Assembly (NCBI RefSeq): GCF_003334315.1
Contig: NZ_QOWR01000127.1
DNA: 898 nucleotides
From: Escherichia coli
GTDB taxonomy: Bacteria > Pseudomonadota > Gammaproteobacteria > Enterobacterales > Enterobacteriaceae
Direction: 5' to 3' (one strand)
Positions 1 through 898 of the stretch are shown piece by piece. The notes beneath the pieces are model-generated. The model worked only from the letters and a program-made list of their open reading frames with translations. It ran no database searches and had not been told where the DNA came from. Numbering within the stretch: the first letter of the stretch is position 1; each line of letters opens with the position of its first letter. The translations under genes and the position numbers were made by a program.

Positions 1-149
1 GGTTGAGAAGCGGTGTAAGTGAACTGCAGTTGCCATGTTTTACGGCAGTGAGAGCAGAGATAGCGCTGATGTCCGGCGGTGCTTTTGCCGTTACGCACCA
101 CCCCGTCAGTAGCTGAACAGGAGGGACAGCTGATAGAAACAGAAGCCAC
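1..149 (-). CDS. insA: IS1 InsA (transposition inhibitor / N-terminal part of the InsAB' transposase), 5' part only, runs off the window edge
   Basis: Minus-strand translation from the GTG whose complement is at 147..149: [50 protein letters not shown], continuing past position 1. It includes the CxxC...CxxC zinc-finger-like motif typical of InsA. Confidence 0.88.
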
Positions 150-181
150 TGGAGCACCTCAAAAACACCATCATACACTAA

Positions 182-204
182 ATCAGTAAGTTGGCATCAT
201 CACC
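182..204 (-). repeat. IS1 terminal inverted repeat (IRL-like), 23 bp, outermost base at 204
   Basis: Minus-strand sequence GGTGATGATGCCAACTTACTGAT against the canonical IRL GGTGATGCTGCCAACTTACTGAT as I remember it; the single difference is at window position 197. Confidence 0.8.
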
Positions 205-268
205 GTAGATGAGTTGTGTAAGAAAGTGACAAGTTGGATGTATTCGCATCCTGGAGAGAGAATTAGAT

Positions 269-487
269 ATGAACGTTTTAAGACACGTTAATGCGATTAA
301 CATGGGAGTGTGCATTCTAATTTGGGTTATTGGATGTGCAAATGCTAAAGTTCTTAAACGATGTATATTACCCGCTCCTGATGGTGGCGTAGAAAAACTA
401 TCAAAACCCAACTTACATGGAGTAATTAAAAAAGTTGATTTGAACACAAATGAAGCGGAAATTAAAATAAAAGAGGGGGGGCAGTGA
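269..487 (+). CDS. Putative small lipoprotein, 72 aa as written; possibly the N-terminal part of a longer frameshifted gene
   Basis: ORF from the track. Shine-Dalgarno-like GGAGAGAG at 253..260, about 8 nt before the ATG at 269. The N-terminus MNVLRHVNAINMGVCILIWVIGC has a basic n-region, a hydrophobic core and a lipobox-like V-I-G-C with Cys23; Ala at +2 suggests outer-membrane sorting by the Lol rule. The mature part is Lys-rich, as expected for AT-rich acquired DNA. No family recognised. Confidence 0.55.
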   Translation: MNVLRHVNAINMGVCILIWVIGCANAKVLKRCILPAPDGGVEKLSKPNLHGVIKKVDLNTNEAEIKIKEGGQ

Positions 488-660
488 GTTTTATTTTTAA
501 TGAGGAAACATTGTATTTTACTGTTTTTGGTGGGGATTTTATTATGGATGATTTAAAAAAAGTAAAAAATACGGAAGCATGGGTATGGTATAAAAATTGC
601 GATAGTAAAAATAAAAATGTGGCAGTTGAACTTCTTCAAATCTACGAATTGCATCAATGA
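484..660 (+). CDS. Small ORF of 58 codons from GTG 484 (or 38 aa from ATG 544); probably the C-terminal part of the upstream lipoprotein gene, separated by a frameshift in a G7 tract
   Basis: The frame is open from 466 to the TGA at 658..660, about 65 codons without a stop in ~30% GC DNA, which is unlikely by chance. Translation: VSFIFNEETLYFTVFGGDFIMDDLKKVKNTEAWVWYKNCDSKNKNVAVELLQIYELHQ. GTG 484 lies only ~3 nt after the G-run (poor spacing for initiation); ATG 544 has GGTGGGG at 529..535 with ~8 nt spacing. It is not in the supplied ORF track, presumably because it is short. Confidence 0.4.
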   Translation: MSFIFNEETLYFTVFGGDFIMDDLKKVKNTEAWVWYKNCDSKNKNVAVELLQIYELHQ

Positions 661-700
661 AAAATATAGTTAAATAGAGGAGGTTATTAATAGCAGGAAA

Positions 701-724
701 AGCATCACGTGATGCTGATTTTTT
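701..724 (+). terminator. Candidate rho-independent terminator: perfect 16-bp palindrome followed by a T6 run
   Basis: AGCATCACGTGATGCT (701..716) is a perfect palindrome (6-8 bp stem), followed by GA and TTTTTT (719..724). It sits 41 nt after the stop at 658..660. On the minus strand it is preceded by A6 and followed by only T3, so it is weaker in that direction but could act bidirectionally. Confidence 0.4.
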
Positions 725-806
725 GCACTAAATAATTCGCGCTAATGTTCAATAGTTAATATATCCCTCATCAGGGAAAGATCACCGGTGTGCCGTAGGC
801 ACAAAG

Positions 807-829
807 ATGCAAAACGGGACGTTTTGCAT
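807..829. repeat. Inverted repeat ATGCAAAACG-GGA-CGTTTTGCAT (10-bp arms, 3-bp spacer); possible operator or RNA hairpin
   Basis: Perfect arm complementarity seen directly. A 6-bp-stem inverted repeat TGTGCC-GTA-GGCACA lies at 789..803 and an 8-bp palindrome CACCGGTG at 783..790. No T-run follows, so it does not look like a classical terminator. Confidence 0.3.
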
Positions 830-898
830 GTAATAAGCATAAGCTTGTGAAGAGATGGTGGCAGGCCCACCGGGATCTGCTGTCGGAAGTCGGTCCCA

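Follow-up and report, generated by a model that had tools for sequence, protein, structure and literature searches.

The question raised by this locus is what produces three inverted repeats crowded between positions 783 and 829 of an 898-nt Escherichia coli sequence (the window), where AT-rich DNA gives way to GC-rich DNA. All three could be read in the sequence where they had been claimed: an 8-bp palindrome, CACCGGTG, at 783-790, the pair TGTGCC/GGCACA at 789-794 and 798-803, and the 10-bp arms ATGCAAAACG and CGTTTTGCAT at 807-816 and 820-829, which a repeat search returned as 100% complementary with a 3-nt gap. The change in composition was likewise borne out, with a GC content of 0.27-0.33 over 450-750 versus 0.42 from 700 on; GC reaches 0.59 in a downstream 121-nt match to Rfam family RF01999, which was found in L002 (strain BE2-5) and starts at window position 857. 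To judge how much of this could arise by chance, 1000 dinucleotide-preserving shuffles of the whole window were searched. Perfect inverted repeats whose arms measured 10 nt and whose loop did not exceed 10 nt occurred in 0.7% of the shuffles (mean 0.010 per window; P ~0.007), while at least one repeat with 6-nt arms and a loop of 3-8 nt was present in 73% of them (mean 1.6), and 3.9 perfect 8-bp palindromes were expected per window where 4 were observed. The repeat at 807-829 alone exceeds chance; neither the 6-bp stem nor the 8-bp palindrome does so when taken singly. With two of the three repeats at chance level, the cluster of the original prediction amounts only to a 10-bp hairpin and its position at a boundary.

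The window belongs to the Rhs/T6SS island of the E. coli chromosome. Positions 1-205 (minus strand) are the terminal part of an IS1 element, including the start of its transposase gene, and abut an Rhs remnant. Window 1-215 has 98-99% IS1 matches in thousands of plasmids, annotated as IS1 family transposase, and the IS1 end at ~205 was read from the start of the non-IS1 matches (query 205). Vector backbone of the p15A/pACYC184 type was considered for 1-200 and rejected, as blast returned IS1. From 206 to 898 the window is 100% identical to L002 7001-7693, a stretch that 865 complete genomes share. At 206-291 (plus strand) lies the C-terminal tip of an Rhs core protein gene, its final 86 nt, cut by IS1; the corresponding CDS of L002 ends at 7086, which is window 291. 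Two overlapping open reading frames of the low-GC Rhs-tip cassette follow on the plus strand, at 269-487 (72 aa) and 484-660 (58 aa); they correspond to the hypothetical proteins WP_001101841.1 and WP_000008098.1, and a search of both against NCBIfam gave no match. The 72-aa product has a hydrophobic N-terminus ending in ...IGC that resembles a lipoprotein signal, and the two frames, which lie downstream of an Rhs toxin end, are plausible candidates for immunity-type genes.

In L002 the window sequence ends 193 nt short of the start codon of a transposase of the ISAs1 family, and the locus is flanked by T6SS genes and, on its opposite side, by yafV-ivy-fadE. Window 120-898, IS1 junction included, recurs in strain PSS-13 at 100% identity; there the IS1A transposase CDS ends within the stretch that corresponds to window 1-205, and IS1 abuts a truncated tssD. 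The cut Rhs core on one side of IS1 and the truncated tssD on the other (L130 1466-2650) suggest an IS1-mediated deletion of most of the T6SS/Rhs cluster. The possibility that the repeats simply fall inside a conserved coding sequence was checked and found not to hold: nearly all of the listed genomes carry no annotated CDS under 741-898.

What the repeats do fall in is the 5' end of a group II intron. The window sequence from 788 onward (GTGTGCCGTAGGCAC) opens with GUGUG at 788-792, which agrees with the GUGYG consensus of intron 5' termini and corresponds both to model position 1 and to nucleotide 1 of a full-length intron. An Rfam scan of the window placed positions 1-42 of RF01999 (group-II-D1D4-2), its first two hairpins, at 857-898 on the plus strand; cut by the window end, this 3'-truncated match scored a sub-threshold 30.6 bits. 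With the flank from L002 added (7652-7772), the whole 118-position RF01999 was matched at 81.8 bits (E 4.7e-17; gathering score 36). The 5' structure of domain I was thus recovered as RF01999 together with helices upstream of it. As an aside, RF01999 lies at intron nt 70-190 in 3/3 full-length introns (L006 2504-2622, L129 2519-2634 and L090 171-288), so that the name 'D1-D4-2' is misleading as to position: the match falls early in domain I, close to its 5' end, and domain IV is a long way off.

The intron itself could be matched to a complete copy in E. coli ATCC 8739, which is 1886 nt long (L129 2450-4335) and sits at the RhsE locus, upstream of pptA. Window 788-898 is identical to nt 1-111 of this intron at 110/111 positions, the one difference being at nt 34, and nt 1-159 of the fragment, which continues beyond the window to that point, are identical to L129 2450-2608 at 157/159. 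The ATCC 8739 intron carries RF01999 at nt 70-185, a 440-aa open reading frame matching the group II reverse transcriptase/maturase family TIGR04416 (424 bits; cut-off 300), and RF00029 (domains V/VI) at 61.9 bits. The window shares with it the 5' exon CAGGGGAAGATCACG (window 772-787), a terminal repeat of the H-rpt element, and also the orientation relative to the ISAs1 transposase gene. A full-length intron E.c.I9 has been described in ATCC 8739, targeting 'Rsh IS (= ISEc1-5)' at a position other than that of E.c.I2 (Leclercq and Cordaux 2012, PMC3522654). We assigned the name E.c.I9 by the agreement of strain, target and copy number with that report, the ATCC 8739 copy being the only full-length E.c.I9 copy examined. 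The same authors listed E.c.I9 fragments in BL21, BL21(DE3), REL606, IAI1, SE11, E24377A, EDL933, Sakai, EC4115 and TW14359 (PMC3522654); in line with this, window 741-898 is matched at 100% by E. coli B derivatives, near 242 kb, and the RhsE copy is found in O157 strains.

We therefore put at roughly 95% the probability that the inverted repeats lie within the first 42 nt of a dead copy of E.c.I9, truncated at its 3' side and lodged in the end of an insertion sequence. The copy as seen here comprises intron nt 1-111 at 788-898 (plus strand). Two other identities were tried and rejected. A class C intron behind the terminator-like palindrome at 701-716 does not fit, the GUGUG standing 66 nt further on and the relatives being RmInt1-like; a retron msr/msd or an IS110-type guide RNA upstream of the transposase was set aside when RF01999 and the full-length intron were matched.

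The position of the intron can be given precisely. The 16 nt in front of it (CAGGGAAAGATCACCG, 772-787, plus strand) are a stub of the left terminal inverted repeat of H-rpt, an Rhs-associated, ISEc1-like element of the ISAs1 family, and form the intron's 5' exon. Ends of ISAs1-family elements typically begin with CAGGG. Intact H-rpt copies start with CAGGGAAAGATCACGTAACGCTG and end with ...CGTAATCTTTCCCTG or ...TTTCGTAATCTTTCCCTG, the ends being imperfect terminal inverted repeats; in L128 the left end reads CAGGGAAAGATCACGTAACGC and the reverse complement of the right end reads CAGGGAAAGATTACGAAAGCC, with a similar right end at RhsE (L003). Terminal inverted repeats of the CAGGG type were thus found to flank the ISAs1 transposase gene, and window 772-787 matches the first 15-16 nt of the left one (CAGGG...). 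When the exons of ATCC 8739 are joined, CAGGGGAAGATCACG runs directly into TAGAAGTACAC. By this sequence comparison the intron is placed between nt 15 and 16 of the H-rpt left terminal repeat, in sense with the transposase gene. An older, diverged left end of an ISAs1-family (H-rpt) element with a leader of ~55 nt precedes the stub at 694-771 (plus strand) and includes the terminal-repeat-like CAGGAAAAGCATCACGTGATGCTG; in a by-eye comparison it parallels L002 7742-7819 (CAGGGAAAGATCACGTAACGCTGATTTTTTGTACTAAATAATTCGC...TTCCTCAT). Within it, the palindrome AGCATCAC/GTGATGCT at 701-716 is followed by a T run and was terminator-like in a consensus scan. Window 772-787 is accordingly the tip of an H-rpt/ISEc1 left terminal repeat and 694-771 an older copy of the same kind of end, so that remnants of at least three H-rpt insertions are stacked at the locus. 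The inverted repeats themselves are not part of H-rpt/ISEc1 and belong to the intron that split its terminal repeat. The rise in GC marks where low-GC DNA of the Rhs tip and the H-rpt leader gives way to ribozyme sequence.

These boundaries bear directly on the proposal that the repeats are a recombination or attachment site delimiting the low-GC Rhs-tip cassette. Mobile-element boundaries do exist here, namely the end of the H-rpt stub (772-787) and the 5' splice site and intron insertion point (787/788), and in other genomes the match to the following element begins at window 768-772. However, it is the insertion-sequence end and the splice site that fix the boundary, rather than the three inverted repeats, and the low-GC cassette ends earlier, its open reading frames stopping at 660 and the older H-rpt fragment taking over from 694. 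Group II introns insert by reverse splicing, and their target is recognised by RNA-DNA pairing, not via hairpins of this kind. So the boundary part of the proposal stands, but the inverted repeats are not themselves the site and do not bound the cassette, and we regard an attachment site as very improbable.

The one repeat that exceeds chance, the 10-bp-arm hairpin at 807-829 (plus strand), occupies intron nt 20-42, the position of the first stem-loop of domain I. Applied to 39 intron 5' ends, MAFFT and RNAalifold misaligned the variable hairpins and yielded no consensus that could be used; a covariance model took their place, for which the 5' ends of 22 RmInt1-type introns were given a structure by hand. 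This model matches window 788-898 over all 111 positions, starting from GUGUG, at 51.7 bits (E 1.6e-10). The inner six pairs of the hairpin (AAAACG/CGUUUU core) are aligned by it to the RmInt1 hairpin AGUUCA-ACA-UGAACU. A scan of the genome collection with a conserved motif yielded ~76 distinct intron 5' ends. In an alignment of 89 distinct intron 5' ends, the hairpin helix (helix 4) has 91% of its cells paired and both-sided changes at 6/6 pairs, counts that favour structure because the alignment was itself fitted to the model, with ~40 of the 89 rows gapped at the hairpin columns where longer hairpins were placed in insert columns. Over all helices, 90% of the cells are paired in this alignment versus 76% in shuffled sequences and 36-49% when the partners are slid. 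In the unaligned sequences of the relatives, a hairpin of unrelated sequence is found at the same place. Meanwhile, the 807-829 hairpin is present in both the minimum-free-energy and the centroid folds, and the fragment folds with z = -3.7 on the plus strand and z = -1.9 on the minus strand. The 10-bp hairpin is thus a conserved stem-loop of domain I, one of the elements by which the ribozyme scaffold folds. The full-length ATCC 8739 copy has a C-A mismatch here (A at intron nt 34) and hence 9/10 pairs, whereas the hairpin of the fragments is a perfect 10 bp. The suggestion of a structured RNA element was therefore right as to origin, a domain I stem-loop of a group II ribozyme, but not as to present role: a 159-nt stub without catalytic domains is expected to have no RNA function now.

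Next to the hairpin, at 833-838 and 839-844, a tandem duplication of ATAAGC is seen relative to the E.c.I2-type intron (L090) and to a copy from Atlantibacter (L104). It is also present in the full-length E.c.I9, which makes it a feature of the lineage rather than of decay, and it creates a small AAGC/GCUU hairpin seen in the fold.

The same hairpin evidence decides against a DNA operator, by which ATGCAAAACG-GGA-CGTTTTGCAT would be a 23-bp palindrome bound by a dimeric regulator of the neighbouring gene. Its dyad symmetry is perfect and unlikely to arise by chance, and the DNA around it is non-coding, with a gene downstream. But the hairpins of unrelated sequence at this position in 89 distinct introns are the signature of RNA pairing, not of protein binding; relatives keep the pairing and not the sequence. 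The site also falls within a contiguous intron match, the nearest downstream gene is 260 nt further on and has its own leader, and blast against E. coli genomes and plasmids found no such palindrome outside the E.c.I9 copies and no cognate regulator gene nearby. We consequently give the operator of the original prediction almost no credence; the CACCGGTG palindrome, too, is absent from other copies. Equally far-fetched is an intrinsic transcription terminator. The stem is strong, with three G-C pairs at its loop end, but no T run follows 807-829 on either strand (the sequence after the stem is GTAATAAGC), and the consensus scan returned only two sites, L002 7496-7511 (window 701-716) and 7860-7879.

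The two smaller repeats can be accounted for within the E.c.I9 fragment. The 6-bp inverted repeat at 789-803 (plus strand) consists of UGUGCC from the invariant 5' end of the intron and a downstream GGCACA; by alignment, RmInt1-type relatives have the 5' strand of an inner helix of domain I at the position of the latter. In these relatives the segment pairs with a strand downstream of the hairpin, forming helix 3, which in the same model-fitted alignment has 79% of its cells paired and both-sided changes at 5/5 pairs. GUGUGC is near-invariant among the relatives, while GCAGCGG, GUAACGG or GCAACGG replaces GGCAC in many of them. Because GGCACA is a strand of another helix and many relatives have no GCAC there, TGTGCC/GGCACA is probably not a real, functional pairing. 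The CACCGGTG palindrome, for its part, spans the exon/intron junction and is missing elsewhere: RhsE has CATCGGTG instead, the PAAR island GCATGGTG and the full-length copy TCACGGTG. It is an accidental palindrome across the splice site.

Comparison with related introns places the fragment in a known lineage. Sensitive blastn against plasmids gave ~79% identity to many copies in Sinorhizobium and Rhizobium. One of them, on pSymA of S. meliloti 2011 (L006), starts with GTGTGCTGCAGAGGCACGG, has RF01999 69 nt downstream, and carries a 427-aa open reading frame and RF00029; its position and length fit RmInt1. RmInt1, of which E.c.I9 is a close relative, belongs to bacterial class D. The two introns have collinear 5' regions with a GUGUGC start, a hairpin at nt 20-42 and the RF01999 hairpins; the distance from GUGUG to the conserved motif AAAGAGCC.TGGT.GTGAGCG is 132 nt in both RmInt1 and E. 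coli, DNA identity is ~79% over nt 54-160, and the RmInt1 reverse transcriptase is 56% identical to the enzyme of full-length E.c.I9. Both have insertion sequences as targets. They differ in the hairpin, which has 6 bp (AGUUCA/UGAACU) in RmInt1 and 10 bp (AUGCAAAACG/CGUUUUGCAU) here, and in the target, the RmInt1 5' exon being ...TTTTCATCGATGAGA and its target presumably ISRm2011-2. Moreover, RmInt1 is an active full-length intron, unlike the 159-nt stub.

An intron of the E.c.I2 type (L090, L128), a name that we inferred from the description in PMC3522654, belongs to the same lineage and uses the same host element. It has the same architecture of RF01999, a 416-aa reverse transcriptase and RF00029, and in L090 it is found at full length and at least 99% identity in 173 E. 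coli genomes. However, it lies inside the H-rpt (ISAs1) transposase open reading frame, after the 5' exon ...GGCGTCTGGACG, and not in the terminal repeat, and its first 53 nt, hairpin included, are of other sequence. Because the L090 intron is only 86% identical to the fragment over nt 54-156, it is to be regarded as a sister of the fragment's intron. Two records from a metagenome-assembled genome binned as 'Collinsella sp.', L089 and L090 (JAIJJM010000460.1 and JAIJJM010000585.1), contain intron and Rhs/H-rpt sequence of E. coli, with 100% identity to E. coli genomes in the case of L090; both are probably mis-binned Enterobacterial contigs. A related intron 5' end was also seen in Atlantibacter hermannii (L104 390-600; RF01999 at 55.5 bits) after a similar exon, ...AGAAAAAGATCACC. 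No reverse transcriptase frame is evident there within the next 800 nt, so this may be a fragment at the same kind of target in another genus.

How much of the intron is left was determined from the genomes that hold this stretch. In L002 and PSS-13 the intron stops after nt 159 and is followed by CAGGGAAAGATCACGTAACG... and a complete H-rpt with its ISAs1 transposase (NF033564, 407 bits). RF00029 (domains V/VI), which full-length copies do match, gave no match in L002 7450-7900 at E up to 10. Neither was a reverse transcriptase/maturase found: the next open reading frame is the ISAs1 transposase, and no ltrA is annotated in L002 or in L130 (PSS-13). In such genomes, then, only intron nt 1-159 of 1886 (111 of them in the window) survive, with a complete H-rpt directly after, whereas the full-length intron has its reverse transcriptase and domains II-VI. 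EBS1 and EBS2 lie in distal domain I; the exon-binding sites, being beyond nt 159, were probably lost as well. Because it has no distal domain I, no domains II-VI and no reverse transcriptase, the stub would be able neither to splice nor to retrohome, and it may be viewed as a fossil carried along with the Rhs/H-rpt locus.

Truncated copies were found at other loci too. At the RhsE-ydcC locus of K-12 and O157 (L003 3020-3250), a 5' fragment of E.c.I9 of ~197 nt ends at the tip of a complete H-rpt; its hairpin GAUCAGA-CGAGA-UCUGAUC matches GUUCGGA-CGAGA-UCCGAGC of RmInt1 with compensatory changes. As the full-length copy is at the RhsE locus, the K-12/O157 fragment is a deleted orthologue of the ATCC 8739 intron. 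A fragment of ~113 nt in the PAAR/WD40 island (L005 3017-3175) also ends at a complete H-rpt tip, and the ~159-nt fragment of L002 (7583-7760) ends exactly at one. L007 (strain KE47) was considered as a divergent full-length copy and rejected; it holds the same short fragment as L005 and gave no Rfam match. The stub is present in 2543 of 5426 complete E. coli genomes, at a median of 1 and a maximum of 4 places per genome, and every locus examined adjoins H-rpt; these copy numbers do not indicate a repeated extragenic palindrome or MITE-type family. An 85-87% identical copy with indels in the hairpins was detected on the 150-kb plasmid pC27A-2 (CP044307.1; L001 5480-5950). It scores 16.7 bits with the same covariance model, versus 51.7 for the window, and looks as expected from neutral decay. 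The plasmid holds the whole composite of old H-rpt end, terminal-repeat stub, intron stub and H-rpt, and its presence there at 85-87% implies that the arrangement is old and moves as a unit.

This distribution could also be taken to mean that the stub has been co-opted, as a putative structured 5' leader ~300 nt upstream of the H-rpt transposase start or a small RNA, either of which would modulate transposase expression, or as a split terminal repeat that would immobilise the insertion sequence. At three loci the next gene downstream, in the same orientation, is that of an ISAs1 transposase; these loci differ in their junctions and yet all keep at least ~113 nt of the intron 5' end; its frequency among the complete genomes and the better-than-shuffled folding of the plus strand point the same way. 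Nevertheless, vertical inheritance of Rhs loci at 95-100% identity explains the high frequency, the diverged plasmid copy has lost most of its structure score, and intact H-rpt copies without any stub exist. Co-option is hence quite unlikely in our estimation. Somewhat less doubtful, though still improbable, is a broader reading in which H-rpt repeatedly inserts into the intron or deletes into it from its own end, a possible cue being that nt 152-170 (GCAGGGGGAACGATCAGA) resemble a terminal-repeat tip, or in which the stub is kept as a transposase leader.

Taken as a dead E.c.I9 fragment, the feature is real, already catalogued and ordinary genomic debris, to which the present analysis contributes no more than the anatomy of its repeats and the precise site of insertion. 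Our literature search for group II intron papers naming ISAs1, Rhs or H-rpt returned nothing relevant. Introns in H-rpt were reportedly noted earlier, by Ferat et al. in 1994, Knoop and Brennicke in 1994, and Dai and Zimmerly in 2002. The result has little import beyond annotation: the locus calls for the label of an E.c.I9 5' fragment within an ISAs1/H-rpt terminal repeat rather than that of a regulatory palindrome. It shows by example how the stubs of dead retroelements give intergenic DNA strong hairpins of statistical significance and abrupt changes in GC. Three loci have each lost the 3' part of the intron while regaining an intact insertion-sequence end; repeated H-rpt insertion or deletion, or retention as a leader, if either were true, would mean that a group II intron and its host insertion sequence interact in a way not yet described. 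As it stands, the finding fits the published picture of Enterobacteria, in which group II introns are inactivated and left behind as single fragments (PMC3522654).
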